DNA from: Candidatus Pacearchaeota archaeon
GTDB lineage: Archaea; Nanobdellota; Nanobdellia; Pacearchaeales; GW2011-AR1
Length of the DNA stretch: 64,000 nucleotides
NCBI GenBank assembly: GCA_041659265.1
Contig: JBAZYP010000009.1
Coordinates: 12,201 to 76,200, forward strand
Direction of reading: 5' to 3'
Positions 32,110 to 64,000 of this stretch are shown in pieces. A program made the translations under genes and the position numbers. Below the pieces are notes generated by a model. The model worked only from the letters and a program-made list of their open reading frames with translations, made no database searches and had not been told where the DNA came from. Each line of letters starts with the position of its first letter. Positions within the stretch are counted from its first letter, which is position 1.

Positions 32110-35100
32110 TTAATCCTTAAATAATTTATTTTTTACCTTTAATCTTTCTTTTTTAGGTAATTTTACATATGTCTTTTTTATGTTTTCATAAAAACGAGTT
32201 GCATCATCAGTTCTCTTATCTTTTTTAGCAAGTTCATATTCTTTTATTAATGCGTTTATATCTTTCTTATCGATATAAATTCTTATATTTTTAATATCTT
32301 TATACAAATGTTTTCTACAGCCCTTAGGAACTAATGGATATATTTCTTTAATTTTATGATATTTTTCTCTAGCTGTTTCAATATCTTCTCTTTTTATTGC
32401 TTTTTTTGCTTCTTTAACATATTTGAATATTCTTGAACCATCTTCTTCTTTTTTCCACATATATATTCTGTATCTTTTTATAGAGATAAAGATAAGATAA
32501 ATGATAAATAATCCCAAGATTATTAACATCAAATATGTTAGCCAGTTGTCAAATTTAAGATCACTTAATAAAAAGAATCCTGTAATTTTAACTTCTTTTA
32601 TATAAATTTCTTTAAAGAGTATTGTGTCTGTTTTTTCAAATTCCTTTGGTTCTATTTCTTTTTCTATATAATAGACTAGTTCATTATTTTCATTTAAGTC
32701 TTTTTTACTAATTAATACACTATTTCCTTGTTTTTCAATTGGTAAAGATAAAAATACAGTATTATTAATGTCTGATATTAGTTCACCAGGGATTATTTCC
32801 ATTATTTCTTCAAACGAATCATTTTGAATATTAATTTTTTTAGATATTAGGGTAATCTTTTTTGTTTTTTCTTTATATTCTATTTCAACTTGGTAAACTT
32901 TAGTTGATACAGAAAGATATTTTTGGAATTCTAAATTTGTTTCTACTAGATTTTTTATAATATCTTTATCTATTTCATTTCCTTTTGAAGAAAGATAGTT
33001 GTTTAAAACCGATTCTAAATCATTAGTAATACTATTTTTAACAAATTCCTGCTGTTTTATTATTCTAACATCTAATGGTAATTTATTTTTAATATCGCTG
33101 ATCTCATTATTTATCTCTTGTATCTTTTTTTCTTTTTGAACTTGATCTGAAACATATTTAAGATTATTTCCAAGGTCTTGATCTATTTGTCTTAATCTTT
33201 TATTAAAATAACCTAGATCATTTTCCAAACCTAATAATAGAAGGACATTTTTTTGATCCATTGAATAGGTTTCTTTTTTATCCATAAAATCCTGAAGACT
33301 AGATAATAAACTATCTACTTCTTCTTTTTGAGAGTAAGAATAACTAGTATTTTTTTCATTTTCTTCATCTTCATTGTCATCTTCATTTAATTGATTTGAG
33401 GTTAATAAGTTGTTATTTAAATCAATAGTAAAATCTCTTTTATTTTCATTGTGATTACTTGAGTTATCATAACATTCAATATACCAAGAAAATTCTCCAT
33501 TATGGAATTCTTGCATTGGAATTTCGTAAATTTTATTATTTTCAGGATTAATTTCAGTTTTTGAATATATAAGAACTCCAAACATGCCTGAATTATTATA
33601 AAGTTCAAAAGTGCAATTTGCTAATTTTATATTATCTGATGCCTTATATGAAAATGTTAATGTTGAAGATTTTATTATTGCTTCGTTTTCTGGTCCGATT
33701 AAAGTAATTTCTGGATCAGTTGAATCAATGTTGTTTGTAACTTGAATTGGTCCTTTTTGAATTGAAAACACTCTTCCATCTATAGTTATATTACTTTTTA
33801 TATAAAAAGTTCCTGGAAGTGCATATTTGTGTGAACTTGTTATATTAATATTATTTTCATTAATTGAAAAATAGGAAATATCTAACGCGCCTTCTCCAAA
33901 ATAATTTATTATAGAGCTTATTTTTTCAACAGGAGAATCAATTCTAATATCTAATGTTAAATTTTCATTAGAATTTAATTCAAGTTTATTAGGCGTTATA
34001 TCTATTTTTGCAACTGAGAAATTCTTTGATATTGAATAGGGTTGTTCATAGTAATACGATGTAAGATTAACGGTATATACTCCTGGTGAAGAAATTTCTG
34101 AACCTGATATATTGTATTCCATTGGATAAGGCCCATTTAGATTATTTAAAATAACTTCATTTCCATTTGGTTTTTTTAATATTAATCTAGTTTGAGTTGG
34201 TTTTGAATCAAATCTAAGTCTTATATTTTCTCCTGGAAGATATACTTTATTTTCAATATCTAAAGAGAATGTATCATTAATAATGAAATAACCTGAAATT
34301 GATTTTTCTTTATCATTATCTTTGCATATAAGATCCCATTTATGATTTCCATTAATTAGATTTGTTGGCCAGATCAAGGATAAATTTAGTGCAGGATTAA
34401 AATCAGTTAGATTTTGATGAGAATTTAAATTATCAATTATTAATTTGCATTTTAATCTAGATAGATTAAAATATCCAATATTAAAATTAAAATTAATTGG
34501 ATTAGCTACTAGTGAATTATTAATTGGAAATGTTGAAACTAGGGTAAGATTTTCAGAAAAATCTATTGGATTAAAACTTATTTTAATTCTATATTCTTGT
34601 TCTGATAGATGCGGTACAATCCAAGAGATCCTATCAAACAATTCATCATTATTTGTGTCATAATAAGTAATATTATCAAGTAATTTAGCTTCAACTTTAG
34701 AATAAACTTCTATTTTAGTAAATTCATTTATTTTAGTTGGTATAATATCTGTATAAAGTCTTATTGGATTGTCTATTTCAACTGAACTATTTAAAATAAC
34801 AATTTTTTCAGTTTCATTATGCTTTATTTCTTTTTTTTGAATTTGATTATCACAATTTATTTCTTCAGGCATAAGTCCTTCATAATTCATCAAATCAGAA
34901 TCATCTTCAATATGGCATTCTAAATATCTTTTTTCAATAGGATTATCTTCTTTATTTTCAGTATTTTCTTGTTCAAGAGCTAAAGAAATCGCTTCAACTG
35001 TTTTTAACATTTGAATAGTATCTGAATATTTTGGATTAGATTCATTTAAATCTGATTTAGATAATTCTTCCTGAGTAATATTTTCTTTTTGATTTTCAAT

Positions 35101-35679
35101 ATTTGTTGAAGAATTACTTTGAGATGAAGTTGTTTGTTCAATAATTTTAACTTCTCCAGAGGAACTTGTACCAATATTTCCTTCACTTGAACCGCCATTG
35201 AAAGTTATTGATGCTTCTTTAACTGGTTCTTCATTAGTATTATTTGAAGAATTTTCTTGTTCTTTATAATCTTCATTAGTTTCATTATTAGATGTTATTT
35301 TTCTTTCAGAATTATTTTCTTGTGAATCTTTAATTGGTGAATCCATTTTTGATTCAACCTCAACAAGATCAAATTCAGATTCTATTTTTTCATTAGAATC
35401 ATTTTTATTAATTGTAGAAACTTGTTCTTCAGATTTGTTTACTAAAATAGAACTATCCTGAATTATTGATGGAGTTTGTTTATTTTCTGTTGAAGAAGTT
35501 GATTCTGTTGATACAGATATTTCTAATTGTTGAGTTTGTTTAATTTCATTAGTATTTTCAATATTAGTTTTATCTAAATCAATAGTAGTATTATCCTGGC
35601 TTAAAACTATGATATTTGAAACTGAGATTAAGATTAAAGTAATTAATAATAAAGATATATTTTTGTTAAGAAATTTCAT
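32110..35679 (-). CDS. giant surface protein (signal peptide, acidic S/T/N/E-rich region, WIVPHLS domain, Ig-like domains, TM, helical cytoplasmic tail)
   Basis: Start set to ATG 35679 (MKFLNKNISLLLITLILISVSNIIVLSQD). Contains ..YYDTNNDELFDRISWIVPHLSEQEY.. and DSTDPEITLIGP Ig-like units, then KITGFFLL + TM LTYLMLIILGLFIIYLIFISI and a ~125-aa K/E-rich tail. Confidence 0.7.
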   Translation of the reverse strand: MKFLNKNISLLLITLILISVSNIIVLSQDNTTIDLDKTNIENTNEIKQTQQLEISVSTESTSSTENKQTPSIIQDSSILVNKSEEQVSTINKNDSNEKIESEFDLVEVESKMDSPIKDSQENNSERKITSNNETNEDYKEQENSSNNTNEEPVKEASITFNGGSSEGNIGTSSSGEVKIIEQTTSSQSNSSTNIENQKENITQEELSKSDLNESNPKYSDTIQMLKTVEAISLALEQENTENKEDNPIEKRYLECHIEDDSDLMNYEGLMPEEINCDNQIQKKEIKHNETEKIVILNSSVEIDNPIRLYTDIIPTKINEFTKIEVYSKVEAKLLDNITYYDTNNDELFDRISWIVPHLSEQEYRIKISFNPIDFSENLTLVSTFPINNSLVANPINFNFNIGYFNLSRLKCKLIIDNLNSHQNLTDFNPALNLSLIWPTNLINGNHKWDLICKDNDKEKSISGYFIINDTFSLDIENKVYLPGENIRLRFDSKPTQTRLILKKPNGNEVILNNLNGPYPMEYNISGSEISSPGVYTVNLTSYYYEQPYSISKNFSVAKIDITPNKLELNSNENLTLDIRIDSPVEKISSIINYFGEGALDISYFSINENNINITSSHKYALPGTFYIKSNITIDGRVFSIQKGPIQVTNNIDSTDPEITLIGPENEAIIKSSTLTFSYKASDNIKLANCTFELYNNSGMFGVLIYSKTEINPENNKIYEIPMQEFHNGEFSWYIECYDNSSNHNENKRDFTIDLNNNLLTSNQLNEDDNEDEENEKNTSYSYSQKEEVDSLLSSLQDFMDKKETYSMDQKNVLLLLGLENDLGYFNKRLRQIDQDLGNNLKYVSDQVQKEKKIQEINNEISDIKNKLPLDVRIIKQQEFVKNSITNDLESVLNNYLSSKGNEIDKDIIKNLVETNLEFQKYLSVSTKVYQVEIEYKEKTKKITLISKKINIQNDSFEEIMEIIPGELISDINNTVFLSLPIEKQGNSVLISKKDLNENNELVYYIEKEIEPKEFEKTDTILFKEIYIKEVKITGFFLLSDLKFDNWLTYLMLIILGLFIIYLIFISIKRYRIYMWKKEEDGSRIFKYVKEAKKAIKREDIETAREKYHKIKEIYPLVPKGCRKHLYKDIKNIRIYIDKKDINALIKEYELAKKDKRTDDATRFYENIKKTYVKLPKKERLKVKNKLFKD

Positions 35680-35680
35680 T

Positions 35681-35929
35681 TTATTTATCACCTTTTTTTT
35701 CTAGTTTATTTATCTTTAAGAATCCTTCATTATATAACCATAATGTTAAAATTTTTCCAACTACATCTTGCTCATTACTTCCCATAATGCCTACTAATTT
35801 TTGCAGAATATCTCTTTGATTGTCAGTAATCGTACCTTTAACAACGACGGTTTTTGCTCTATTTTTTTCATCAGGTCTCTTTTGAGACTCTTTTAAGCCC
35901 TCTTTTAGCATAAAATAGATACTTTTCAA
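35681..35929 (-). CDS. small DNA-binding protein, ribbon-helix-helix-like
   Basis: 82 aa. ..KTVVVKGTITDNQRDILQKLVGIMGSNEQDVVGKILTLWL.. fits a strand-helix-helix fold. Its TAA (35681-35683) is 1 nt from the ATG of the giant gene. Confidence 0.35.
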   Translation of the reverse strand: MKSIYFMLKEGLKESQKRPDEKNRAKTVVVKGTITDNQRDILQKLVGIMGSNEQDVVGKILTLWLYNEGFLKINKLEKKGDK

Positions 35930-36016
35930 GTCTTTATAAACCTTTTCATTAAGGTTTTTTAATAGTATATTTTTTCTTTCAAAAAGGTATATAAATTATA
36001 ATTGAGGTATTATATA

Positions 36017-37936
36017 ATGAATAGAATAAAGGGGCGGTATTATTTGGTGATAGGTTTATTTTACTTATTTTTTCTATTAAATTCAGTAATAATTGCTCAA
36101 GATGTAGAAACTGGGATGAATGTTACAGTTAGTCCTCCTATTCTTATTCAACTAATACCTAATTTTACATGGGAAACTAATCAAAATCTTACTAATGCCT
36201 TTTGTTTAGATGATTATTTTAAAGACCCTTCTGGATTTAGTTTAAATTATACATTTACCAGTGTTCCTAATATTCTTGTTGTGATTAATTCTACAACAAA
36301 TAATGTTTCTTTTTATCCTGATTTTGGATTTATGGGTATTAGGAATATAACTTTTTATGCTACCAATGATATGGGAACTACTCCAAGTAATCCTGTTACA
36401 TTATTTGTAAATTTAGATGACGAGGCACCTAAATGGAAGAATCCTGGAAAAAATAAAGTAAATGTTTATCAAAATGATTATGTAAATTTTACAACAACTT
36501 GGACTGACAATTATCAATTGCAGGGTTATACATTTTATTTAAGGCAACAAGGTGCTTGGGTTAGCACTCCTGGAAGTTTTAGTGGAATTGAAAATATTTC
36601 GAGAGCTAGTGCCCAGATAGTAAGTATTCCTGGAAATTTTATTTATTGGTATTTTTGCGCAAATGATACCTCTGCAAATTCAAATTGTACTGATTTATAT
36701 TCTTTTAATGTATCTGTGCCCCCTGTTGTTGATAATCCTCCATCTGTATCTCCCCCTTCATCAGGAGCAACTTCACCACCTCCTGCAACAACCACTCCAC
36801 CTGCAACTGGTGCTGCAGTAGTTCAATCTGAAGCAAAAAAGAAAATAAAGGATTTTTTAGTCGAACCCAGTTTTTTTAAGATTTCTATGAAACAAGCATC
36901 TGTTGATACTAGAATATTAAAAATAACTAATATAGGTAATACTGAAATTTTCATAAATTTGAGTCTTCTTGGTGTAGAAGATTTTGTCGTATTAAGTGAA
37001 AATTCATTTAATTTAACTAATGGCGAGGTTAAGAAAATTACAGTTGATTTCATAACAAAAAATAATACTGTTCCTGATCAATATTTTGGAAGAATAATAG
37101 TTTCTTCTTCTCAAATTCAAGAAGTTCCGGTTATTATTGATGTTAATCCTATTAATCAAAAATTTTCAGTTGATGTAAATATTTCTGAAAAATATAAGGT
37201 AGTTAAACCTGGTGAGATGGTACAAGCGAATATCATCATTAAGAACATAAAGGATATTACTCCTACAAATGTTAAATTACATATTGCTATAAAAGATTTT
37301 TCAGGAACAATTTATGATTCTTATGAGGAAGATATTCTTTTTGATGATACTTTAAATCTAATAAGAAATATCACTGTACCTTCAAATACAATTGTAGGGG
37401 AATATTTATTTTATGCTAGAATTTATGATGAAAATAATATTGCTATTGATTCAGATAGTTTTCAGGTTGGAACAAGATATTTATTAGCAGTTTATTTTAA
37501 AAAATATTTTTTATTTATTCTATTATTATTTTTATTTATTTTAACTATCTTTTTGATACTTAGATATAAAAAGGAAAGAGAGAAGGAACGAACTTTAACT
37601 CTTTATTTAATGCTTACAGAATTAAAGAATTTAATAAAAGATGGCAAGTTTGATAAAGCTGTACAATTATATATTAGAATAAAAACTATTTATGGCGAAC
37701 CTGTATCAAGAGCCAGTATTAAAGACAAAGAAAAATTAAAAGAAGAAATTGAAAAACTTTCTAATAAATTAAAGGGAGAATTGGAGACAGCAAAAGAAGC
37801 TAATTCAGATAAAGAAAAAAGCGATACAAAAAAATCTGAGGATATAAAAGAAGTCAATAAAGAAGAAACTATTGTAAAAAATGAAGAAAAAAAAGAAAGT
37901 GAAAATGAGGTAAAAAATGAAGAAAAAACCAAGTAA
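36017..37936 (+). CDS. surface protein: Ig-like N-domains, Pro-rich linker, two-domain juxtamembrane module, TM, helical tail
   Basis: Start set to ATG 36017 (signal ..FFLLNSVIIAQD). Has a PPSVSPPSSGATSPPPATTTPPATG linker, a module with DQYFGRIIVSS..VPVIIDV and VKPGEMV..VGEYLFY, TM FLFILLLFLFILTIFLIL, and a tail ..FDKAVQLYIRIKTIYGEP... Confidence 0.65.
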   Translation: MNRIKGRYYLVIGLFYLFFLLNSVIIAQDVETGMNVTVSPPILIQLIPNFTWETNQNLTNAFCLDDYFKDPSGFSLNYTFTSVPNILVVINSTTNNVSFYPDFGFMGIRNITFYATNDMGTTPSNPVTLFVNLDDEAPKWKNPGKNKVNVYQNDYVNFTTTWTDNYQLQGYTFYLRQQGAWVSTPGSFSGIENISRASAQIVSIPGNFIYWYFCANDTSANSNCTDLYSFNVSVPPVVDNPPSVSPPSSGATSPPPATTTPPATGAAVVQSEAKKKIKDFLVEPSFFKISMKQASVDTRILKITNIGNTEIFINLSLLGVEDFVVLSENSFNLTNGEVKKITVDFITKNNTVPDQYFGRIIVSSSQIQEVPVIIDVNPINQKFSVDVNISEKYKVVKPGEMVQANIIIKNIKDITPTNVKLHIAIKDFSGTIYDSYEEDILFDDTLNLIRNITVPSNTIVGEYLFYARIYDENNIAIDSDSFQVGTRYLLAVYFKKYFLFILLLFLFILTIFLILRYKKEREKERTLTLYLMLTELKNLIKDGKFDKAVQLYIRIKTIYGEPVSRASIKDKEKLKEEIEKLSNKLKGELETAKEANSDKEKSDTKKSEDIKEVNKEETIVKNEEKKESENEVKNEEKTK

Positions 37937-40409
37937 AACTTTAAAGAATTCTTTTTATCTGTTTTTTATTTTTTTATTAATATTTGGAATAATTTCTAAT
38001 GCAAATGTAAATGTACATGCAATTGATTCAGCATATGGGCCTAAAATTGAAAAAGAACTTTATACTATTTCAAGAAATAAAGTAGATAGGCTTGTTTATA
38101 AGGGAGATATATTTAGAGATTTTATTGATATTACTTATTCTGGAAGTTCTGGCTCTGAAGTTACTTTTGCGGTTAGCGATGAATTAACAGAAATTATTGA
38201 ATTTGAAACAGCAGGAGTTATTCTAAATTCCAATAATTATTCTAGAGCAAATTTTTTATTAAAGGGAAAGGAAATTGGTAATTATTCTGGATTTATTAAA
38301 TTAAAGGGAGGTATTATTGAAGATATTCCTGTAAATGTAACTGTAATTGAACCTAAAATAGATCCCCCATTAATAATAAGTCTTGAATTATCCGAGTCTA
38401 AGTTTGTTCTTAATAGGCCTTTTGAATTTAAGTTAAATATAAATAAATTAAAACCGGATTTTATAAACAACGTTTCAATTGCATATAGAATTAGGGACAG
38501 TAATAATAAAACTTTTTTTTTGGGTTCTGAACAATTAGATATTCAAACTTCTTTTCAAATTGTCAAGAAATTTAAAATACCTGATGAAATTGATGAAGGG
38601 CAATTTATTTTAGAATGTGAAACTCAATATGAGGATAAAAGGATAATTACTTCTTCAATATTCCTATTAAGAAGACCTTTTATGAAGATACTTATTTTTG
38701 GTTTTTTCCCAATGTGGTTGCTTATAACTATTTTAGGTTTGTTATTTTTTAGTGCTCTTGTTTTTTATCTTATAAGAATGAATTTAGCTAAAAGAAGAAA
38801 ATATCAGATGAAACTTGATTTAAAAACTATTCCTATAAAAGAACCTGGTTTTTTATTTTTAGGTAAAATTGCAGAGAAGAGCAATAAGGCTTATCTTGAT
38901 CCTTATAGGTTAACTACTCATAGTATTGTAGCAGGTGCTACTGGTGGAGGAAAATCAATTGCAGCTCAAGTAATTGTTGAAGAGGCCTTAATAAATAATA
39001 TTGCGGTTATTGTTATGGATCCAACTGCACAATGGTCCGGAATGCTAAGAAAATGTACTGATAAAAAGATGATGTCTTATTATCCTAATTTTGGTTTAAA
39101 AGAAACAGACTCAAGAGCATTCAAGGGTAATGTAAGACAAATAAAGAATGCTCGAGAAATAGTTCATGTTGAAAAATATATGAATCCGGGTCAAATACAG
39201 ATATTATCTCTTAATAAATTGGATCCAAAGGATATGGATTTTTTTATTGCTAATTTTATTAGGCAGATATTTAAGTCAGATCCTAAAGAATCTCCAAATC
39301 TTAAATTATTACTAGTTTTTGATGAGGTTCATAGACTTTTATCAAAATTCGGAGGTACTGGGGAAGGGTTTTTGCAAGTTGAAAGGGCATGCAGAGAGTT
39401 TAGAAAATGGGGTTTAGGAGTAATGTTAATCTCTCAGGTCTTAAATGATTTTGTTGGAGAAATTAAAGCAAATATTTCTACAGAAATTCAGATGAGAACT
39501 AGAGATGAAGGAGATTTAAAAAGAATTCAGACTAAATATGGTGATGAATTCTTACGTTCTTTAGTGAAAGCTTCTGTAGGGGTTGGTATGTTTGTAAATC
39601 CTGCTTATAATCATGCTAGACCTTATTTTGTAAACTTTAGGCCTATATTACATAATACTAGAAGATTGCCTGATGAAGAATTGGAACGTTATAATAAATA
39701 TAATGATATTTTGGAAGATTTAGAATTTCAGACAGATCAACTAGAGAAAGAAAAATTAGATGTTTTTGATCTTAAAATGGAATTAAAACTTGTTAAAGAT
39801 AAAATTATGACAGGAAATTTTTCGGTTGTAGAAATTTATTTAGAGGGATTAACTCCAAGAATTGCAAAAGAATGGGAAAAACTCGGGAAACAACCAAAGA
39901 AACTTGAAGTAGAACTTATTTCTGAAGATGAAATAAAAAAATCAATCGAAGAAGCAAAAAACGCAAGAAAAAAATATGAGCTTGAAGAAGCTAAGAAAAA
40001 AGCTAAAGATGAAAAAGAAGTAGTTAAAGCCCCGGAAAAAGAAAATCTTGATTTGAAAGAAGTTAATCCAATAACTTTTGATAATGGAATTATGGTTTCA
40101 AGTTTAAAAGAACTTAAAAGTGTTTTACCTACTATGGATATAAGTATTTTTAAAATTCATGTAAATGATCAAAAAAATGAGATTGCTGATTGGATAGAGA
40201 AAAATATATCTCCGGAGTTAGGGGTTAGATTAAAAGATGCTAAATTAAAATCACAAATGATTAAAGTTATGGATGATTTTGCTAAAGGAATTGTAGAAGA
40301 GAAGAAAGAAGAGAAGAAAGAAGAGAAGAAAGAAGAGAAGAAAGAAGAGAAAATAGTAGATAATAAATCTCCAGTAAATACAACCCCTGTAAATACGCCT
40401 CCAAAATAA
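37917..40409 (+). CDS. membrane-anchored FtsK/HerA-superfamily P-loop ATPase with extracellular N-terminal module (copy 1)
   Basis: Signal ..LIFGIISNANVNVHA, a ~230-aa ectodomain, TM ILIFGFFPMWLLITILGLLFFSALVFYLI and RRKY. Cytoplasmic part: IVAGATGGGKS (Walker A, 38941-38967), VIVMDPTAQW, LLLVFDEVHRL (Walker B, ~39306-39338) and GLGVMLISQ. 20-nt overlap with the upstream gene. Confidence 0.8.
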   Translation: MKKKPSKTLKNSFYLFFIFLLIFGIISNANVNVHAIDSAYGPKIEKELYTISRNKVDRLVYKGDIFRDFIDITYSGSSGSEVTFAVSDELTEIIEFETAGVILNSNNYSRANFLLKGKEIGNYSGFIKLKGGIIEDIPVNVTVIEPKIDPPLIISLELSESKFVLNRPFEFKLNINKLKPDFINNVSIAYRIRDSNNKTFFLGSEQLDIQTSFQIVKKFKIPDEIDEGQFILECETQYEDKRIITSSIFLLRRPFMKILIFGFFPMWLLITILGLLFFSALVFYLIRMNLAKRRKYQMKLDLKTIPIKEPGFLFLGKIAEKSNKAYLDPYRLTTHSIVAGATGGGKSIAAQVIVEEALINNIAVIVMDPTAQWSGMLRKCTDKKMMSYYPNFGLKETDSRAFKGNVRQIKNAREIVHVEKYMNPGQIQILSLNKLDPKDMDFFIANFIRQIFKSDPKESPNLKLLLVFDEVHRLLSKFGGTGEGFLQVERACREFRKWGLGVMLISQVLNDFVGEIKANISTEIQMRTRDEGDLKRIQTKYGDEFLRSLVKASVGVGMFVNPAYNHARPYFVNFRPILHNTRRLPDEELERYNKYNDILEDLEFQTDQLEKEKLDVFDLKMELKLVKDKIMTGNFSVVEIYLEGLTPRIAKEWEKLGKQPKKLEVELISEDEIKKSIEEAKNARKKYELEEAKKKAKDEKEVVKAPEKENLDLKEVNPITFDNGIMVSSLKELKSVLPTMDISIFKIHVNDQKNEIADWIEKNISPELGVRLKDAKLKSQMIKVMDDFAKGIVEEKKEEKKEEKKEEKKEEKIVDNKSPVNTTPVNTPPK
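40296..40352 (+). repeat. 12-bp tandem repeat GAAGAGAAGAAA x ~4.75 encoding (EEKK)n
   Basis: Read directly from the sequence, inside the C-terminal tail of ATPase copy 1. Confidence 0.85.
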
Positions 40410-53456: not shown

Positions 53457-53669
53457 ATGGTTATAAGTGAAAGTGAACTAAAAAATATCCTTAAAACAAG
53501 AACGAATATAGAGAAATCTACAACTATTAGCAGTGATGGAAAAAATCTTCTTACAAGAATACCTAAGGAAATTGCAGATTTTTTAGAAATTGAAAAGGGA
53601 TATAAGATAAAATGGAATATAACCAGAAATAAAAAAATAAAAATGGAGATAGTTGCAAATGAAATCTAA
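53457..53669 (+). CDS. AbrB/SpoVT-type DNA-binding protein
   Basis: 70 aa. ..GKNLLTRIPKEIADFLEIEKGYKIKWNI.. matches the swapped-hairpin pattern. 17-nt overlap with the next gene. Confidence 0.5.
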   Translation: MVISESELKNILKTRTNIEKSTTISSDGKNLLTRIPKEIADFLEIEKGYKIKWNITRNKKIKMEIVANEI

Positions 53670-55608: not shown

Positions 55609-56391
55609 ATGGTTAACAAATTTTTAGTGAGTTCTAGACTAAGATTATTTTTGGTCTTAATTTCATGTGTTTTGTCTGTAAATATGATTTTGGCAGTTCC
55701 TTCAGGAAGTCAGATTACTGGTTTAACCAATTCATCTGCTGCTACTATTGCACCTGATTGGGATAATGCAATTGCAGGAAATGTTAGTGAATTAACTTTA
55801 TATGGTGATTCTGTAACTCAATCTTGGCAAGGTTATTTTGGAAATGTAACAGGAGCAATAAGACTAGCTGATGGATCTGGAAATGTAATGTATAATTGGA
55901 GTTTAACTAATCCTAGTGGAGAAATATATTCTTCATTTAATGATTCCATAATCTGGACAAATATACAATGTTTTAATTATACTGCTGCAGGAACTTTTGC
56001 AGATGATTCAGGACAAGCTGGTGCTACAAGCAGATTTGGTATGAATTTAACACAATTAGAAGGTTTATTTAATATAACTTCAACAGATGTTGACGGAGTA
56101 GATGAAACTTTTAGTTTAAACAGTCATGTTGCATTCTATACTAATAGCAAGCAATTTTCAGCAGGAGAATGTAACAATTCCAAAATATTCACTCAAAATG
56201 GAACTGGATATTTTGATGAAGTATTGTTGTATTCACCAGATACACAAGTAGTTGTATTTACATCAATATTAAAGAGCGATGCTTTAGGTTTTGATGGGGC
56301 TAAACATGATTTTGAGATGTTAGTCTTAGAGGATGGAAGAGATGGTAATAGTGCATTAACGCCATATTACTTTTATTTAGAACTTCAATAA
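55609..56391 (+). CDS. secreted WQGYFGN...YYFYLELQ family protein (copy b)
   Basis: Colinear with 53939-54724 over its full length (more than half the residues identical by eye). C-terminus ..TPYYFYLELQ*. Confidence 0.65.
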   Translation: MVNKFLVSSRLRLFLVLISCVLSVNMILAVPSGSQITGLTNSSAATIAPDWDNAIAGNVSELTLYGDSVTQSWQGYFGNVTGAIRLADGSGNVMYNWSLTNPSGEIYSSFNDSIIWTNIQCFNYTAAGTFADDSGQAGATSRFGMNLTQLEGLFNITSTDVDGVDETFSLNSHVAFYTNSKQFSAGECNNSKIFTQNGTGYFDEVLLYSPDTQVVVFTSILKSDALGFDGAKHDFEMLVLEDGRDGNSALTPYYFYLELQ

Positions 56392-57716: not shown

Positions 57717-59932
57717 AAAAATTAATTTTAATTTTGTTATTAGTATTTTTAACAATAAATTTTGTTTTTTCACAATCACAAACCGTTGTTCTTGATTATA
57801 ACTATAATAATATCACTAGATTTGAAAAATCAATCAATTATCCTGATTTTCTTTTGAAAGTTATAACTGAAAATAATTCTATATGTAAATATAGTGTTAA
57901 TCGCGACATTAATTATATTGATATGGAAGGAAGTTTTGAAACTAATACCGAGAAGATTCATGAAAAAAGTTTTGTATCCTTGTCAGAAGGAGTTACAAGG
58001 TATTTCATAAAATGTATATTTTTATATAATAACTCTTTTGAACCTTCTCAAAATGAATTATTATTAAGGGTCAATTCTTATGTAACAGGAAAAATAACTT
58101 TATCTAGGGAGTCTCCATTAAAATCTGGTCAAGTAGAAGTTAGTTTAACTACCTCTAAAATAATTTCACAAACTCCTATTTTAAGTTATTCATTTGATGG
58201 AATTACTTATAATGATCTTCCTTTGGTTGGATCTCAAAAGAATTGGAAAGGTTATTTAATGATTCCAAAAAATGCTGGAGAAACATTATTATCTTTTAAA
58301 TTCAGTGCAAGTGATCTTGAAGGAAGGCAAGGTCAAGAGATTACTTCTGGCAAGGTTTTTGTTATTGATACTATTAAACCTAAGATGGTTTCATATATTG
58401 ATGCTGAAAGTGAAGAAGGAAGAATAAAGTTAGAATGGTATTATGATGAAGATTTTAAGGAATTTAGAATTTTTAGGTCAAATTCTCCGAATTCTGATTA
58501 TACTAATTTTTATAAGATAATTGACGGTACTTCTTTTTATGACACTCTTGTAGATAAGGGAAAAACTTATTATTACAGGGTTTCGCCTGTTGACGAGGCT
58601 GGAAATGAGGGAGAATTATCTAAAGAAGTATTAGCAACTGCACTACTTCCAAATAATTTACAAACAAATCTTAATGGGGCTATTGGATTAAATCCTGAAT
58701 TATTAGGATTTGTAGATAATTTTATTGTTGAAATAGATTCAGTAATTTCTGATTTAGAGAGTATTAAAGAAAATGTTTTAACTAAACCAGAAAAAGATAA
58801 GTCTTTATTTAATGAATTGCAATTGGATAAAGATCTTGAAACTTCCAAGTTGGAATTATCTAATTTAAGAAAAGATATTGAAAGATTTAAATCTCAAGAT
58901 CTTAAATTAGATGAACTTAATAAGAAAATAGATTCGTCTAGGCTAAAATTAAATGTTATAAAAAGAAAGATTCCTGAAAGTTTTGCTGTTATAAATGAAA
59001 ATGAAGAAGAGAATACATTTGATGAAAAAGAAACTAATGAAATTTTACTTGAATTATATCCTACTTTTTCACAAAAGGAAATCGAAAGGAGTTTAAAAGC
59101 TACAAAAGATATTATTAAAGAATCAGGATATCAGGTAAAAAGTTATTATTATATTCTTAATATTATTTATCTTGATGGAACTAAAAAAGAGATTTCTTTA
59201 ATTAAAAGAGATATAACTTCCCAATTGACTAGAAAGGATAATTATACTTTTATTGAATATATTCCAAAGGATGTAGCTGAAAGCACTTCTGAAATTCAGA
59301 TAAAAACTCTTGGATACGGGATTGTAAAAGAGGATCCAATAATATCTTTTGGAACAGATACAAAACAAATAATTTATATTATAAATAAAAAATCCAATTT
59401 AGATCTTATTAAGAATACTAAATTTTATTTAATAAATATTCCAATAAACTCTGAGGAATCAAATTTAGGTTTTGATATAACTGGATATTTTTTATTAGAT
59501 TATGATAAAAAAAGCTACTTTGGAATAGTTATTGCAACATTATTCTTGTCTTCTTTAATAATTTACTTTTTTTATTTAAAATATAAGGGAAAGAATAATA
59601 ATCTTGATGAAGTATATAAAAAATTAGACTTATTGGATTATCTTCTTGAATTAAAGGATGAATATAAAGCTGAAATTTCCTATAGGGATATTAATAATGA
59701 TTATATAAAATTAAGTTCAAAAGAGAAAGAAAAGTTATATCCAAAAATAGAGAAATTGAGGGAAAGAATCTTAATTTTAAAATTAAAAAAAGGGATAATT
59801 GAATTAAATAAAAATAAAGATTTTGAAAAATTCAAAAACTTAGAAAAAATATTTAATAGTTTAAGCATTGAATCAAGAAAAGAAATTTCTCCTTATTTTT
59901 ATAAATTAAAAAAGAACTTTGAAAATATATGA
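57713..59932 (+). CDS. surface protein with FN3 domain, coiled-coil ectodomain, TM and helical cytoplasmic tail
   Basis: Signal ..LTINFVFSQS. FN3 unit ..RIKLEWYYDEDFKEFRIFRS..GKTYYYRVSPVDEAGNEG... Then DITGYFLL + TM FGIVIATLFLSSLIIYFFY and a tail with ..LSSKEKEKLYPKIEKL... Confidence 0.65.
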   Translation: MKKLILILLLVFLTINFVFSQSQTVVLDYNYNNITRFEKSINYPDFLLKVITENNSICKYSVNRDINYIDMEGSFETNTEKIHEKSFVSLSEGVTRYFIKCIFLYNNSFEPSQNELLLRVNSYVTGKITLSRESPLKSGQVEVSLTTSKIISQTPILSYSFDGITYNDLPLVGSQKNWKGYLMIPKNAGETLLSFKFSASDLEGRQGQEITSGKVFVIDTIKPKMVSYIDAESEEGRIKLEWYYDEDFKEFRIFRSNSPNSDYTNFYKIIDGTSFYDTLVDKGKTYYYRVSPVDEAGNEGELSKEVLATALLPNNLQTNLNGAIGLNPELLGFVDNFIVEIDSVISDLESIKENVLTKPEKDKSLFNELQLDKDLETSKLELSNLRKDIERFKSQDLKLDELNKKIDSSRLKLNVIKRKIPESFAVINENEEENTFDEKETNEILLELYPTFSQKEIERSLKATKDIIKESGYQVKSYYYILNIIYLDGTKKEISLIKRDITSQLTRKDNYTFIEYIPKDVAESTSEIQIKTLGYGIVKEDPIISFGTDTKQIIYIINKKSNLDLIKNTKFYLINIPINSEESNLGFDITGYFLLDYDKKSYFGIVIATLFLSSLIIYFFYLKYKGKNNNLDEVYKKLDLLDYLLELKDEYKAEISYRDINNDYIKLSSKEKEKLYPKIEKLRERILILKLKKGIIELNKNKDFEKFKNLEKIFNSLSIESRKEISPYFYKLKKNFENI

Positions 59933-60246
59933 TGAAATTAATAATATTTTCCTTTTTATTAGTATTTTTTTTAGGATTAATTAGTGTTTCATCCTCTGAT
60001 ATTATTAAAATGAATTTAAATGAGGGTAAAAATAATCTGCATATAACCTCTGAAAAAGAATTTTTTGTTAAAGATTTAATTTTATTAAATCCGGATATAG
60101 AAGTTATTTCTTATATTAATGGAAATAGGACAATAGGATATATTAATATTTTTGGAGGGATAGGAGAGAATTTTTTAATAAGGAATGATATAAATTATGA
60201 GATTATCAGTAAAAGTGATGCTGAAATTATTTTTCCTTTAAATTAA
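59929..60246 (+). CDS. small secreted protein
   Basis: 105 aa, signal ..FFLGLISVSSSD. ATGA overlap upstream, and 1-nt spacing to the next gene. Confidence 0.45.
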   Translation: MMKLIIFSFLLVFFLGLISVSSSDIIKMNLNEGKNNLHITSEKEFFVKDLILLNPDIEVISYINGNRTIGYINIFGGIGENFLIRNDINYEIISKSDAEIIFPLN

Positions 60247-60247
60247 G

Positions 60248-61513
60248 ATGAAAAAAAAATATTTTTTTCAAAAATTTAAAAATAATGAAATTAAAAGAAA
60301 TATTTTAATTAATAAATATTTTATTTCATTTATATTTAATATTTTTTTAATTTATTTTTTTATAACTTCTATAAGTGCGGCTCATTATATTGTTGGTTAT
60401 GTTAATAATTCAAGGGGAGGAATACAAGCAGATAATCATACTATTCTAATATGGAATCCCCTAGTTGGATTAGAGGATAATTTGACTGAAATTATTGGAA
60501 TTTCTGGAAGTTCTGGAGTTAGAAATGTTTATATGATTGATTGTGAAATGCTAAATAATTCTTGCAAGGTAGGAGATATAATTAATATTCAAGTCATAGA
60601 TAATGGCGATGGGTATTTTAGTAATCAAACTTATGTTAATATAACTGGTGCTGGATTTGATAGTGCACAAAATCTTTTTTTAATAACTCAAATGAATATT
60701 AGTTCAATAATTGTAGATGATTTTTTATCTAGTCCTTCTAATGAAATTGATTTACTTGCTGCAACAAATCAAACAGTAAATTGTGAGGCAATTATTGTTG
60801 GTTTAGATGGGGCCTCATTATTCAATATAAGTTCACAATTTTTTAATGATAATTTATCTTTTTATGGGGATAGCAATGATAATAATATCCATTATACCAA
60901 TAATAGTTGTTTTATTAATCAAAGTTATAATGGCAGTCATACAAAAAAGATTATTTGTTCATTTCCAGTTCAATATTATTCAAATAGTGGAAATTGGAGT
61001 TGCAGGATAAATATTATGAATAATTATTCAATTGAAACAAATAATTCAGATAACACTTTTATAAATACTTTGCTAGCTATAGGAGTAGATTCGCCTGTTG
61101 ATTATGGAGAATTTAATATTGGCAGTGTAACTGATGAAAAACAAATCGATATAATTAATTATGGCAATCAAGTCGCTAATTTAAGTTTAAAAGGATATGG
61201 CCAAATTGAAGGGGATGGATTTTCTATGATCTGCAATGGAAGTGGCAGCAATAATCTAAGCGTTTATCATGAAAAATATAACCTAACACAATCTAATTTT
61301 GGAGAAATTACTTTAAATCAAATGGAAAATATATACAAAAACTTAACAAGCGAAAGTGTAATTAATAGTTTTAATATTAAAATTAGAGAAAATGATTTGT
61401 TTAATGATGCAATAAATTCTTCTTATTGGAGAATGTATGTGCCCATTGGTGCTTTTAGTGGATCTTGTCAAGGAAATTTAATATTTGGAGCAGTAATTGC
61501 TCCAGGAGAATAA
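60248..61513 (+). CDS. secreted protein with HYIVGYV N-domain
   Basis: ..ITSISAAHYIVGYVNNS..ILIWNPLVGLEDNLTEIIGISGSSG..YMIDCEMLNNSCKVGDII..GAGFD.. is paralogous to the N-domain of 44582-46465. Confidence 0.6.
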   Translation: MKKKYFFQKFKNNEIKRNILINKYFISFIFNIFLIYFFITSISAAHYIVGYVNNSRGGIQADNHTILIWNPLVGLEDNLTEIIGISGSSGVRNVYMIDCEMLNNSCKVGDIINIQVIDNGDGYFSNQTYVNITGAGFDSAQNLFLITQMNISSIIVDDFLSSPSNEIDLLAATNQTVNCEAIIVGLDGASLFNISSQFFNDNLSFYGDSNDNNIHYTNNSCFINQSYNGSHTKKIICSFPVQYYSNSGNWSCRINIMNNYSIETNNSDNTFINTLLAIGVDSPVDYGEFNIGSVTDEKQIDIINYGNQVANLSLKGYGQIEGDGFSMICNGSGSNNLSVYHEKYNLTQSNFGEITLNQMENIYKNLTSESVINSFNIKIRENDLFNDAINSSYWRMYVPIGAFSGSCQGNLIFGAVIAPGE

Positions 61514-62598
61514 TGTTAGAAATAATTTATTTAATCAATAGCATTGTAACCTTAATTATATTTTTTATTTTATTAAAGGGCTATTTTATAGATAAAGCTA
61601 AAAAACATATACAAAGAGTTGTAAATGTCCTTTTTGGAATTTCATTAATTTATTTTATATTATTTTTGTATTCAAGTTTATGGTATTTTGAGATATTAGA
61701 ATATTCTTTAGAAGATTTTTTATTAATAAATACTTTGATGAACGTAATTCAAACATTACTTTTATTCAGGATAGTTTATTTATTAAATCAAAATAAAAAT
61801 CTCTTTTATTTATTATTTTTTTATGTTATTGGACTTTTATCAGTATTTTCTTCAATAATTAACTTTTATAATATTTTTTTAATAATTTCTTATCTATTAA
61901 CTTTAGCATTATTATTAGTATTAGGGGCCTCAATAGGAATTGTAAAAAAATCTTCAAATTATGGGATTGCATATTCTTGCATTTCTTTAATTTTATTATT
62001 ATTTTCTATGTATTTTCCAAATCTAATTTTTTTATTTTCAATATTTTCAAATATTTTGTTTTTATTATTTATTTATAATTTTATAAAAATTTTGGATAAA
62101 TGTCCTGTTGTTTATCATGACTCAAGGTATAAGAAGAAACATTATATATTTATTTTTTTAAGATATTTGACCTTTGTTATAACAATAACTAATTTGGTAT
62201 TTATAGGAACTCTAGCTGTTCATGAGTTTGGACATTTTTCAGTAGCTAAATTATATGGTTGTGAATATAGCAAGATAATCTATGAATCAGATATGCCTTA
62301 TACTGAAACTTTTTGCAAAATGGATTCAAAAAATAATCTATTATTTGGGGGGATATTTCTGCCATTTTTAATTGGATTTATATTATTTATAGTAGGGGGA
62401 TTAGTTATAAGGGATATATCTCTATTAATAATTGGATTTAATCTCATTGTTTCAACTAAAGATTTTATTGAATTGGGTCTAACTGAAAATATCATATTAA
62501 TCTCCATAATTGCAGGCGTTTTATTTTTAATAACCGGGATAGTAATGTTAGCTAAATCAAGAACAGAGGATTATATGCATATAGTCTTTGATTTATGA
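61513..62598 (+). CDS. polytopic membrane protein with M50 (site-2 protease)-like HExxH
   Basis: Start set to ATG 61513 (TAATG overlap with the previous stop). ~8 hydrophobic helices, with ..LAVHEFGHFSVAKLYGC.. inside a helix, as in M50/SpoIVFB-type proteases. Confidence 0.5.
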   Translation: MLEIIYLINSIVTLIIFFILLKGYFIDKAKKHIQRVVNVLFGISLIYFILFLYSSLWYFEILEYSLEDFLLINTLMNVIQTLLLFRIVYLLNQNKNLFYLLFFYVIGLLSVFSSIINFYNIFLIISYLLTLALLLVLGASIGIVKKSSNYGIAYSCISLILLLFSMYFPNLIFLFSIFSNILFLLFIYNFIKILDKCPVVYHDSRYKKKHYIFIFLRYLTFVITITNLVFIGTLAVHEFGHFSVAKLYGCEYSKIIYESDMPYTETFCKMDSKNNLLFGGIFLPFLIGFILFIVGGLVIRDISLLIIGFNLIVSTKDFIELGLTENIILISIIAGVLFLITGIVMLAKSRTEDYMHIVFDL

Positions 62599-62707: not shown

Positions 62708-64000
62708 ATGAATAAAAAGAGCATGGCTAGAGCAGGTTTAATCTTAATAGTAATTCTCTTATTTTTCTTAATAATTTTTGTAATACCCAAAGTTAGTCCT
62801 GCCGCAATACAAGTAAAAGAGATTTATATTTTAGGTGAAAAATTTGAGCTTGATTTAACAAATAAGCCTTGGGCGAAAATAAAAGTATATACTCCTTCAA
62901 AACAGGTTTTAAATTCTCTTTCAAATCAGAAGAGATTTATATTCAGGCCTTGGGAAACAGGGGAATATAAGGTAGAAGTTGTTTATAATGGAAAAAAAGA
63001 AAATTATAATTTTAAGGTTGTAAGTAATTTAACAGAAAATGTTTCAGAAACTCTTTTTATAATTGATCCAACAAAAATTATTGATCTTAATGTTGAAAGT
63101 ACAAATTCCAGTTTTTTAAAAATAGGTAGGCCTATTGTTTTAATGGATGAAGCAAAGGTGATAACCGGAGTTGAAAAGAAAATAGAAATTCCAGAAAGCA
63201 GTAATATTTCTGTATATCATATGATAGGAAATGAGAAAAAAGTTTTTTTAGATTTTGAATTAAAGAATAATAATGATGGAACAAATTCTGTAATTATTGA
63301 TGGTATTGCTGGTAATTTTCAAGTAGAATATTCTTTAGCTGCTCCTGAAAAAGTTGAAAAAGTGATAAGTGAAGAAAAAAAAGAAGTTACTATCTATACT
63401 CCAAATGGTCTTGGATATCAAAATGTTACAGCATTTACATATCTAAAGGAGTTTTCAAAATCAAAAGAAAATCTTCAAATTTATTGGAAAGAAGAAGAGA
63501 GATATCTTGATTTTACTCCTTATGATAAAAATAATAATGGTTTTATTGATTATATAGAATGGATAGTTCCTCACTTATCTAATCAGACTTTTGAAATAAT
63601 TTATATTATAAAAGCTGAACATTTAAATTCTACAAGAGATTTTGTTGAAGAAATCTATCCTTTTGTTAAAGATAGAGATTATTTATTTAAAGAAATATTA
63701 ATAAATCATTATATTAGAGTTACTTTTGAAAAATTACTTGATTCAACTAAAGATATAACAATATATGCAAAAAGCAATAATTCTGGAAGAGTTGAAGTTT
63801 ATAATAAAGATAGCAATACTAAAATAGCAGATTTTGGAATAATAAATGAAGATAATAAATATCGGATTTTATTGAATAATTTAACTTTACCTTCAGATAC
63901 ATTTGATTTAAAGATAATAAATGGAAGTGTATTTTTTGATCAAATAATTGATCCTTCTGTTTCGATTAATGTTCCTGGTTCAATTGTTTATGGTCAAAGT
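62708..64000 (+). CDS. giant surface protein, N-terminal part (runs off the window), absent from ORF track
   Basis: ATG 62708 opens MNKKSMARAGLILIVILLFFLIIFVIPKVSPA... The frame stays open for 431 codons to the window end. It contains ..YDKNNNGFIDYIEWIVPHLSNQTFEI.., paralogous to 32110-35679. Confidence 0.6.
   Translation, partial: MNKKSMARAGLILIVILLFFLIIFVIPKVSPAAIQVKEIYILGEKFELDLTNKPWAKIKVYTPSKQVLNSLSNQKRFIFRPWETGEYKVEVVYNGKKENYNFKVVSNLTENVSETLFIIDPTKIIDLNVESTNSSFLKIGRPIVLMDEAKVITGVEKKIEIPESSNISVYHMIGNEKKVFLDFELKNNNDGTNSVIIDGIAGNFQVEYSLAAPEKVEKVISEEKKEVTIYTPNGLGYQNVTAFTYLKEFSKSKENLQIYWKEEERYLDFTPYDKNNNGFIDYIEWIVPHLSNQTFEIIYIIKAEHLNSTRDFVEEIYPFVKDRDYLFKEILINHYIRVTFEKLLDSTKDITIYAKSNNSGRVEVYNKDSNTKIADFGIINEDNKYRILLNNLTLPSDTFDLKIINGSVFFDQIIDPSVSINVPGSIVYGQS

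Follow-up and report, generated by a model that had tools for sequence, protein, structure and literature searches.

The 64,000-nucleotide stretch of DNA analyzed here (hereafter the window) is chromosomal and, by exact sequence match, belongs to an 83-kb contig of a Candidatus Pacearchaeota metagenome-assembled genome. It contains a cluster of ~32 kb, which encodes two membrane ATPases (ATPase A and ATPase B) and about a dozen unannotated surface proteins, including secreted proteins with a WQGYFGN motif (Table 1). The part of the window upstream of the cluster includes genes for RadA, SRP54, FtsY, a DHH/GAN-type nuclease, and DAHP synthase as well as two tRNA genes, and the G+C content is uniform along the window (23-31%, as assessed by base composition). 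In the NCBI annotation (locus tags WC867_07080-07170), all products are "hypothetical" or "DUF87 domain-containing," with the SpoIIM gene as the sole exception. A previous reading of the window, made from the sequence alone (the sequence-only reading), had described a set of envelope genes with several components, centered on membrane-anchored ATPases of the HerA/FtsK superfamily. Our analysis upholds this description and extends it to relatives, in which the gene set is conserved. We are highly confident that it represents a real, conserved, non-mobile, and undescribed envelope system.

Paralogy was assessed by BLASTP within the window and by profile-profile comparison (hhalign) of family alignments built from related loci; the probabilities given below are those of hhalign. 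Profile libraries were Pfam, NCBIfam, PADLOC, and PHROG. Two monomers were modeled (ATPase A and a WQGYFGN protein, both with medium confidence), and the WQGYFGN model was searched with Foldseek against PDB and BFVD.

Two membrane ATPases with extracellular domains

Judged by their sequences, both ATPases are P-loop members of the FtsK-HerA superfamily. They share 55% identity over 666 amino acids (aa) by BLASTP and 71% identity over the ATPase cores, which are ~63% identical to those of a more distant, Woesearchaeota-type (Woese-type) group. Both match DUF87 (PF01935), with 37 bits for ATPase A and 48.2 bits for ATPase B (cut-off 23.2), and in profile searches solved HerA structures match the motor down to E = 1.5e-7. 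The Walker A motif is GATGGGKS in ATPase A (aa 340-347) and GATGMGKS in ATPase B (aa 769-776), and the Walker B motif is LLVFDEVH in both (aa 465-472 and 894-901, respectively). Walker A (GATG[GM]GKS) and Walker B are invariant in 19 sequences.

Hydrophobic segments and their flanking charges (positive-inside rule) place the Ig-like modules of the cluster outside, and the ATPase cores and tails inside. In both ATPases, a single transmembrane (TM) segment follows the ectodomain and is itself followed by K/R residues. This segment spans aa ~254-291 by hydrophobicity in ATPase A (helix 266-295 in the model), and ATPase B has its second TM at aa 690-710. N-x-S/T sequons follow the same division, with 163 observed versus 84 expected from shuffled sequences in predicted outside regions (1.9-fold, 2.9 per 100 aa), as opposed to 14 versus 15.4 in inside regions (0.55 per 100 aa). 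Individual surface proteins show this excess (31 versus 19.6 in 32110, 30 versus 12.8 in 44582, and 22 versus 8.5 in 60248). The positive-inside rule and the sequon excess both predict that the Ig-like modules are extracellular rather than cytoplasmic, in keeping with the sequence-only reading. The two proteins are therefore predicted to be single-pass membrane ATPases, with motors inside and ectodomains outside.

In the AlphaFold model of ATPase A (pLDDT 68), aa ~45-252 form two PapD/ASH-like β-sandwiches, for which the best Foldseek matches are the PapD/ASH-like tandem domains of HYDIN, RbmA, WxLIP, and CEP192, with Caf1M at rank 44. The ATPase subdomain at aa 496-580 of the same model has a pLDDT <50. 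The C terminus of ATPase A is a small α/β domain with the motif HVNDQKNEIADW (aa 748-759, window 40158-40193). Its match to DUF5752 (PF19027) is sub-threshold (13.2 bits, E = 0.057), and the motif HVNxxKN[DE][IF]AxW is common to both. ATPase B has a P/T/K-rich tail in its place. A partner protein in a Woese-type operon (L055:12844-14070) carries two DUF5752 copies (31 bits versus a cut-off of 23, E = 2e-7), and the motif is found once or twice in free cytoplasmic proteins of these operons (L055:12844-14070, L055:15263-15781, L047:12838-13545, and L047:14831-15442). DUF5752, a family of unknown function, thereby gains its first genomic context, as a partner or appendage of membrane HerA-type ATPases.

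The N-terminal part of ATPase B (aa 26-251, in the numbering of the 48260 open reading frame (ORF)) matches the free WQGYFGN proteins 53939 and 55609 with probabilities of 98.7 and 98.3%, respectively, and direct alignment reveals a common motif, AG..TELNI...W.G.yG. ATPase B can in effect be read as a TM segment and a WQGYFGN domain, followed by two CarboxypepD_reg domains and an ATPase-A-like protein. This fusion physically ties the motor to a very large secreted family (>1,100 representatives) of no known fold. It is a new and specific clue to function, yet it does not decide between the options considered below.

The WQGYFGN family comprises 785 clusters at 90% identity (E ≤ 0.001) and 1149 representatives at 50% identity. 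The two free proteins of the cluster are 54% identical over their full length. When the domain is part of a longer protein it is always at the extreme C terminus, which in the family is an almost invariant Y-Y-F-Y-[LV]-E-L-[EQ]. Signal peptides in the cluster resemble those of Sec type I, the cleavage sites (...IIA|IS and ...ILA|VP) lying past the hydrophobic core. There is a conserved sequon inside AGNVTELNI, and sequons are ~3-fold over-represented (10 observed versus about 3.4 expected), and heavy N-glycosylation is therefore predicted. In the model, the core (aa 75-261) is β-rich and confident, and a strongly conserved stretch (aa 55-73) is unstructured in the monomer. The family has no Pfam domain, no PDB sequence match even at E ≤ 10, and no Foldseek match in PDB or BFVD. 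We considered that WQGYFGN might be a capsid or jelly-roll protein served by a packaging ATPase, and discarded this idea on the same Foldseek result.

Partner genes and gene order in relatives

Table 1. Genes of the cluster, named after their first window position where no other name is given.
Feature	Coordinates	Strand	Description
32110, giant surface protein	32110-35691	-	1193 aa; signal peptide, N/S/E-rich Ig-like ectodomain, TM aa 1047-1074
35681, small leading gene	35681-35929	-	82 aa; heads giant-gene operon; no Pfam match
36002, ATPase A partner	36002-37936	+	Signal peptide, Ig-like domains, P/T-rich linker, juxtamembrane Ig pair, TM aa 493-524
ATPase A	37917-40409	+	830 aa; signal/anchor, ectodomain, TM, HerA/DUF87 core, coiled coil, DUF5752-like C terminus
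40488	40488-41408	+	N-terminal TM, Pro-rich linker, cytoplasmic helical C-terminal domain
41440	41440-43134	-	Secreted; C-terminal TM anchor, weakly CWB2-like N-terminal repeats
43282, SpoIIM-family polytopic membrane protein	43282-44091	+	PF01944, E = 8.6e-15
44409, AbrB/MazE-like small protein	44409-44585	+	Heads movable cassette in many genomes
44582	44582-46465	+	Secreted, 627 aa; N-terminal HYIxGYV domain, Ig/CARDB-like middle, WQGYFGN-type C terminus
46474, K-rich one-TM protein	46474-47142	-	Poorly conserved; family of 6 sequences
47145, small TM protein	47145-47498	-	Cys-rich extracellular tail; conserved, divergent from ATPase B
47437, cytoplasmic protein	47437-48168	-	243 aa; conserved N-terminal MGLFGIFK, helical C-terminal domain; divergent from ATPase B
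ATPase B	48281-52012	+	1243 aa; TM, WQGYFGN-type domain, two CarboxypepD_reg, Ig pair, TM, HerA core, coiled coil, P/T/K-rich tail
52075, small cytoplasmic helical protein	52075-52419	+	Homologous to 40488 C terminus
52406, cytoplasmic coiled-coil protein	52406-53263	+	MFxFKKK N terminus, putatively membrane-binding
53457, AbrB/MazE-like (53457-53669), and 53653, winged helix-turn-helix (wHTH; 53653-53961)	53457-53961	+	Overlap each other and first WQGYFGN gene
53939, WQGYFGN protein 1	53939-54724	+	261 aa; Sec-type signal peptide, β-rich core, C-terminal YYFYLELE
54993, wHTH (ArsR/MarR-like) regulator	54993-55604	+	Between two WQGYFGN genes, position kept in other genomes
55609, WQGYFGN protein 2	55609-56391	+	260 aa
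56463	56463-57716	+	CARDB ectodomain (24.3 bits), TM, short tail
57713, paralogue of 32110	57713-59932	+	Signal peptide, ectodomain, TM aa 601-624, helical cytoplasmic tail
59929, small secreted protein	59929-60246	+	105 aa; conserved cassette member
60248, secreted HYIxGYV-domain protein	60248-61513	+	Cys-containing CARDB-like C-terminal half
61465, polytopic membrane protein	61465-62598	+	HEFGH motif aa 253-257, window 62221-62235
62708, giant surface protein, 5' part	62708-64000	+	Cut by window end

Paralogy extends to many of the partners. The giant protein 32110 matches 57713 (100% probability over 649 columns), 62708 (99.1% over 85 columns), and 36002 (96.7%), whereas the ectodomain of 36002 matches both ATPase A (aa 45-310, 98.8%) and ATPase B (aa 421-734, 99.4%). 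A helical cytoplasmic tail is common to 32110, 57713, and 36002. It is ~120 aa long and TPR-like in 32110 and K/E-rich in 36002, and the tails of 36002 and 57713 match with a probability of 95.8%. The C terminus of 40488 matches 52075 (97.2%), each gene lying directly downstream of an ATPase, and 44409 matches 53457 (86.5%). The N-terminal domains of 44582 and 60248 are 43% identical over 126 aa (100%), and the C terminus of 44582, which ends in YFYYELE, matches 53939 and 55609 (89.8 and 81.2%, respectively). Giant Ig/PKD/FN3-rich ectodomains are found among the surface proteins of the cluster and of related operons. The sequence-only reading had each structural family occurring in both halves of the cluster. 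This stands for the paralogous pairs and fails for 41440, 43282, 47145, 47437, 52406, 59929, and 61465, which are single. It had also labeled 36002 and 56463 alike, for which we found a probability of only 39%; the N terminus of 56463 matches ATPase A (93.6%), and this protein is only weakly related to the ATPase/36002 module.

Some family assignments had to be revised. The FN3 domain proposed for 57713 has no Pfam match, and no Pfam profile backs the RHH-like pattern of 35681, which by profile comparison is unrelated to the AbrB-like pair (44409/53457). In the pair of small regulators ahead of the first WQGYFGN gene, 53653 matches HTH_24 (E = 1.8e-7) and 53457 matches MazE (E = 0.038). No protein of the cluster is better conserved than 41440 (59% mean column identity), which has no PDB match; its CWB2-like label holds for 3 of the 22 family members only, which match CW_binding_2 with a best E of 7.8e-4. 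In other genomes, 43282 travels with 41440. The M50-like label of 61465 is half borne out, since the HEFGH motif is present and the Peptidase_M50B match is below cut-off (E = 5.7e-4), and we consider the protein a putative M50B-like intramembrane metalloprotease. It directly follows WQGYFGN genes in other genomes and is therefore a candidate maturation protease. An ESCRT-III/PspA reading of 47437 and 52406 was rejected, as none of 43 family members has a Snf7 or PspA match; the two families gave one isolated Mvb12 match (E = 0.007), their PDB profile matches are generic coiled coils, and 47437 has no family match. Membership of 46474 in the system is uncertain because it is poorly conserved.

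Relatives of the ATPases form at least 561 clusters in a collection of 5.8 billion proteins, and all those named among the 120 matches listed are from Pacearchaeota, Nanoarchaeota, or Nanobdellota. Architectures of ~800 and ~1250 aa both recur among the cluster matches. In GTDB species representatives there are 473 relatives, the best 80 of which were used for neighborhood analysis. This yielded 77 loci, and the counts that follow are relative to loci with sufficient flanks. As the sequence-only reading anticipated, ATPase homologues elsewhere do adjoin the same families. A-type loci have a core in which the RHH-like gene and the giant are divergent from 36002 and ATPase A. A 36002-like gene is present in 36/39, a 35681-like small leading gene in 27/38, and a 32110/57713-like giant upstream of the ATPase in 28/28. 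In B-type loci, 47145 and 47437 (12/13 and 13/15) are divergent from ATPase B, 52075 (10/15), 52406 (11/15), and WQGYFGN genes (9/15). The 62708-type giant family recurs in 26 loci. Between these cores moves a cassette (44409-59929-60248-56463-57713-44582), which is one co-directional operon in many genomes (L004-L020), is found beside either ATPase, and is split between both halves in the window. At least seven other genomes have both ATPases on the same contig, and six more have them within a single locus.

The Woesearchaeota-type set consists of 15 more distant loci with a compact operon, in the order RHH-pattern gene, ~1000-aa tail-anchored giant, ~1300-aa ATPase, DUF5752 protein, 52406-like coiled coil, second DUF5752 protein, ~200-aa protein, and ~2000-aa giant. 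The coiled coil is present in 12/13 of these loci, making 52406 the most widely kept ATPase partner, and the "LRRSxKD...KIxYY" domain found at the 40488 C terminus is fused to DUF5752 repeats in these operons. No homology is detectable between the leading RHH gene and 35681, or between the ~200-aa gene and the wHTH gene 54993. The ATPase has a WQGYFGN-like N-terminal domain ("WSGVYG") and C-terminal TPR repeats (TPR_19, E = 1.6e-9; L055:8888-12781 and L047:8858-12784), which are absent from the Pacearchaeota ATPases. Together with the TPR-like tails of the giants, these repeats suggest cytoplasmic protein-protein docking. Complete Woese- or Pace-type operons are also present on contigs labeled "uncultured Methanosarcinales archaeon" or "Candidatus Diapherotrites" (L060, CAZJFT010000012.1; L066, CAZQDS010000032.1; and L020, MWBV01000001.1). 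These contigs are probably mis-binned or mis-labeled DPANN archaea and not true occurrences outside the lineage.

In a neighbor-joining tree of the ATPase cores, the Woese-type forms a separate clade. ATPases A and B are not reciprocally monophyletic, both being split into the same two deep sub-lineages. Because reciprocal monophyly is not recovered, the age of the A/B duplication is read from the conserved architectures and not from the tree. The sequence-only reading saw two diverged copies of one module. The paralogy is confirmed, but the comparative loci speak against duplication of a single module: because they show architecturally different ATPase operons and a movable cassette, the region is better read as one ancient super-cluster with two differentiated ATPase operons and a common secreted-protein cassette. 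The best explanation is that the cluster encodes an envelope machine that is specific to the Pacearchaeota/Woesearchaeota lineage (Nanoarchaeota sensu GTDB) and has been inherited vertically.

Known systems and possible functions

The closest known relative by sequence is HerA, and both ATPases have Walker motifs of HerA type (GxTGxGKS, hhhhDExH). However, they lack the N-terminal HAS barrel of HerA and have instead a signal/anchor, an extracellular Ig-like ectodomain, and a TM segment. None of the HerA partners (NurA/Mre11/Rad50 and Sir2/DUF4297) was found in the cluster in Pfam scans, and all named or labeled relatives of these ATPases are DPANN-type archaea. NCBIfam HerA equivalog models score 15-41 bits against cut-offs of 800-970, and the PADLOC HerA/Mad8 matches are partial (E = 1e-11 to 1e-12). 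ATPase matches to PADLOC and PHROG are at superfamily level only, and no other cluster protein matches either library. FtsK/SpoIIIE proteins have a multi-pass membrane domain and a gamma wHTH, whereas here there is a single TM after the ectodomain and no detected wHTH. FtsK_SpoIIIE (PF01580) scores 19.3 bits with ATPase B (cut-off 24) and has no match in ATPase A at E ≤ 0.01. A DUF87 gene on a Haladaptatus plasmid, considered as an annotated analogue, proved to be a stand-alone gene in an unrelated context.

The sequence-only reading had noted no PilB/PilC, archaellum, Ced/Ted, or VirB gene set, and Pfam and NCBIfam scans of the cluster agree. Models for CedD, TraC, TraD, and VirB4 reach 17-32 bits against cut-offs of 366-600, over the P-loop/Walker B region only, and no VirB2/6/8, CedA, relaxase, or WXG100-type gene was detected in the cluster with the same libraries. 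VirD4/TraD, VirB4/TraC, the Ced ATPase, TraB, and EssC/EccC likewise have a membrane anchor, a cytoplasmic ring ATPase, and envelope partners encoded in operons, and ATP-driven envelope work may be a principle common to these secretion/conjugation translocases and the present system. They differ in that here a large extracellular domain is N-terminal of the TM and the context is chromosomal and lineage-wide. EssC of type VII secretion systems has three ATPase domains, as opposed to one per protein here, and WXG100 proteins are helical hairpins of ~100 aa without signal peptide, whereas WQGYFGN proteins are β-rich, 260 aa long, and have signal peptides. The "W-x-G" within the WQGYFGN motif is a coincidental resemblance. 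As for type IV pili and the archaellum, no cluster protein matches T2SSE or T2SSF in Pfam; a lone T2SSF match (E = 0.017) in one relative from the 41440 family was taken as noise. The Sec type I-like signal peptides also differ from the class III ones of such filament systems.

Filaments built by strand complementation offer a different comparison. Sulfolobus threads, TasA/archaeal bundling pili, and chaperone-usher pili are the examples considered. In common with them, WQGYFGN proteins are small, β-rich, Sec-secreted, predicted to be heavily glycosylated, and present as many paralogues. The N-terminal extension of WQGYFGN proteins is conserved and disordered in the monomer model, and in larger members the subunit domain is C-terminal, behind an "adhesin-like" N-terminal part, in a FimH-like layout. 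The WQGYFGN domain on ATPase B would be the counterpart of an anchor/nucleator copy such as TapA or CsgB. A PapD/ASH-like Ig pair lies beside the membrane here, reminiscent of chaperone-usher systems, but PapD-like folds are generic. Unlike in these systems, WQGYFGN has no fold or sequence likeness to any solved subunit. To our knowledge, none of the thread, TasA, or chaperone-usher systems uses an ATPase. For the threads, an anchor/nucleator role has been proposed for Saci_0405, and no ATPase is mentioned in the thread cluster (bioRxiv 10.1101/2022.04.26.489512). Another predicted archaeal envelope complex that combines an ATPase with membrane-anchored Ig-like surface proteins is the "novel secretion system" of Makarova et al. 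2015, which comprises arCOG01314/DUF4350, a MoxR ATPase, vWA, and Ig-like S-layer proteins (PMC5898192); the SpoIIM family is also a topic of that paper. This candidate was rejected because MoxR AAA+, vWA, and DUF4350 are all absent from the cluster (Pfam). We found no description of the present gene set in the searchable literature. Family modules specific to the Pacearchaeota lineage have been reported as unannotated and mostly membrane-bound or extracellular (PMC8204110).

The adhesion or DNA/protein-transfer function suggested for the cluster in the sequence-only reading is pure inference. We put forward tentatively, rating it somewhat short of an even chance, that the ATPases are the membrane base and energizer of a glycosylated extracellular assembly. 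The ATPases would form hexamers, as in their superfamily, and these rings would co-assemble with tail-anchored surface proteins, through homologous Ig-pair/TM modules and tails, into a membrane platform. 52406, 40488/52075, 47437, and DUF5752 domains, which co-occur with the ATPases, would provide its cytoplasmic scaffold. An ATPase B ring would carry six WQGYFGN domains, which could act as anchor and template; WQGYFGN subunits, secreted and N-glycosylated, would polymerize on them into a fiber or lattice together with adhesin-like proteins that have a WQGYFGN tail (44582 type). Because the subunits have Sec-type signal peptides, the ATPase would not be needed for their export; ATP hydrolysis inside might instead drive assembly, remodeling, or retraction by mechanotransmission through the TM helices. 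Expression would be governed by the small regulators ahead of each operon, and some components may be matured by the M50B-like protease.

Several points weigh against this assignment. The polymer is purely a prediction, and WQGYFGN has no structural or sequence match to a known filament, S-layer, or capsid subunit. The WQGYFGN domain of ATPase B closely follows the first TM; if that TM is uncleaved, the domain would lie near the membrane with both of its ends tethered, an arrangement that suits a ring or base and equally a non-polymerizing sensor. ATPase A is without such a domain, and no WQGYFGN genes were seen beside Woese-type ATPases within 10-kb flanks. The classical activity of HerA/FtsK ATPases is to thread DNA or polypeptide through the pore at their center, and we know of no precedent for mechanotransmission by such a ring.

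We consider trans-envelope translocation unlikely yet a serious contender. Hexameric HerA/FtsK-type rings would pump DNA or unfolded protein through a TM channel (the ATPases with 36002, 32110, 57713, and 56463), and ectodomains and WQGYFGN proteins would serve as conduit or docking, e.g. with DNA being scavenged as a nucleotide source. The best non-HerA profile matches, although weak, are CedD, TraC, and TraD, but they are limited to the P-loop/Walker B region and far below cut-off. Each subunit has a single TM after the ectodomain, and no CedA/VirB6/ComEC-like channel, nuclease, relaxase, or recognizable DNA-binding domain was found in the cluster (Pfam, NCBIfam). Moreover, the extracellular components have Sec signal peptides and therefore need no dedicated translocon. 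On the other hand, the characterized membrane-anchored members of the superfamily known to us (FtsK/SpoIIIE, TraB, VirD4-type, CedB, and EssC) are substrate translocases (PMC12857230). Pacearchaeota have been proposed to live on scavenged nucleotides (PMC8204110), and a possible functional analogue is the type IV secretion system required for host-dependent growth of episymbiotic Patescibacteria (PMC12857230). A role in envelope biogenesis or division appears rather improbable. In that case the ATPases, 52406, the SpoIIM-like 43282, and the CWB2-like 41440 would organize the insertion and anchoring of a surface layer, or would couple division/segregation to the envelope in an FtsK-like manner, with WQGYFGN proteins as wall or S-layer constituents. 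The near-core, chromosomal, vertically inherited distribution would suit such a role, as would the conservation of 41440 with its weak CWB2 hints, the coiled-coil partner being the most universally kept neighbor, and the proposal that archaeal SpoIIM-family proteins act in membrane remodeling or division (PMC5898192). However, no partner has an FtsZ, SepF, Cdv, or ESCRT-III/PspA signature, FtsK_SpoIIIE is below its Pfam cut-off, and two paralogous ATPases with differing ectodomains, adhesin-like giants, and regulators look more like an accessory surface organelle than a housekeeping divisome.

We regard as more improbable still an inside-out adhesion or motility machine in which cytoplasmic ATP hydrolysis moves or tensions giant tail-anchored adhesins on a host surface, with TPR-like tails docking on the ATPase, DUF5752, and the coiled-coil scaffold. 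The internal ATPase that drives the gliding legs of Mycoplasma mobile is a functional analogy. The homologous helical tails of 32110, 57713, and 36002, the TPR repeats of the Woese-type ATPase, the coiled coil with its putative membrane-binding N terminus, and the giant ectodomains are consistent with such force transduction, but docking of tails on the ATPase is only predicted, ring translocases are not known to work in this way, and the WQGYFGN fusion to ATPase B is left unexplained. A mobile-element module, whether of an integrated conjugative element or of a virus that packages its genome by means of a HerA/FtsK-type ATPase, is largely refuted and in our view highly improbable. A tRNA-Thr gene at the left border, flanks that are not syntenic between genomes, and a weak PHROG match to a HerA/FtsK-type "terminase large subunit" (E = 8e-9) would fit it. 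Yet the ATPase is outside conjugation and virus-packaging families and there are no mobile-element genes in or beside the cluster within the window; the opposite would have counted against the sequence-only reading. Specifically, no integrase, relaxase, capsid, or replication gene is found there (integrases and att repeats having been sought by Pfam scans of neighbors only), base composition is uniform, and the "structural" proteins carry signal peptides and TM anchors. No member of the family is present in phage genomes, and 2.9 million viral contigs give a single match, confined to the P-loop. Plasmids give only three matches of ~26%, the examined Haladaptatus neighborhood being unrelated, and hundreds of species show conserved internal synteny. 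A bolder reading seems to us a long shot. It envisages a new class of archaeal trans-envelope nanomachine, unrelated to type IV pili, type IV secretion/Ced, or type VII secretion, with a hollow, glycosylated WQGYFGN tube that would be templated by six WQGYFGN domains and coaxial with the pore of a hexameric HerA-type motor. With WQGYFGN-tailed adhesins at its tip, the tube would let these ultra-small, nucleotide-scavenging archaea attach to other cells and, at the expense of ATP, pull in DNA or export and import protein.

Pacearchaeota and Woesearchaeota belong to the most abundant archaea and also to the least understood, and we know of no cultured member. The cluster turns part of this lineage "dark matter" into a concrete machine, with two motors that have clear catalytic motifs and defined sets of partners. 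If the ATPases build or power a surface organelle, no earlier envelope system would have run on a HerA-type ATPase with its own ectodomain, and the cluster might explain how archaea can energize a surface structure from the cytoplasm without type IV pilus machinery. If DNA is moved instead, archaea would have a third and independent means of transporting DNA. In both cases, there are now specific targets for cryo-electron tomography, metaproteomics, and heterologous reconstitution.

Gene calls and neighboring genes

All ORFs listed in the sequence-only reading exist, at or within a few codons of the positions it gave, and its start for ATPase B (48281) is that of NCBI. The 20-nucleotide (nt) overlap between 36002 and 37917 is real, and so is the tight packing of genes (gaps of -4, -4, +1, +4, -14, -17, -23, +2, and +8 nt). 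When the longest ORFs are taken, 47145 and 47437 share 62 nt (47437-47498), and 47145 probably starts at the internal MKKKKISKK. For 61465, the start is probably the ATG at 61513, as noted previously. The continuation of 62708 past the window end has only a 7.8-kb duplicate contig on record. No operator or promoter motif is common to the 10 intergenic regions of the cluster beyond shuffled controls in this AT-rich DNA. Within the 317-nt gap at 44092-44408, one stretch is unusually rich in G+C and includes a 7-bp hairpin (CGGAGTT...AACTCCG); a small RNA was considered for this gap and rejected, with no Rfam match at E ≤ 1 and a fold z of -0.25 versus shuffles.

The flanks of the cluster show no synteny between genomes except in the closest relative, L023. 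A tRNA-Thr(UGU) gene (31282-31354, minus strand) is directly at the left border. SRP54 and FtsY, encoded ~3.5 kb apart on the minus strand (20551-21927 and 25392-26972), are 27% identical over their GTPase domains, which is ordinary paralogy and the sole other paralogue pair in the window. They flank a gene for a putatively secreted 1100-aa protein with an fn3 domain (22058-25360, plus strand). Two more large, putatively secreted proteins are encoded upstream of the cluster on the plus strand, one of 790 aa with Big_7/Big_13 domains (8940-11312) and one of 585 aa with a CAP domain (14652-16409), and the whole window is unusually rich in surface proteins.

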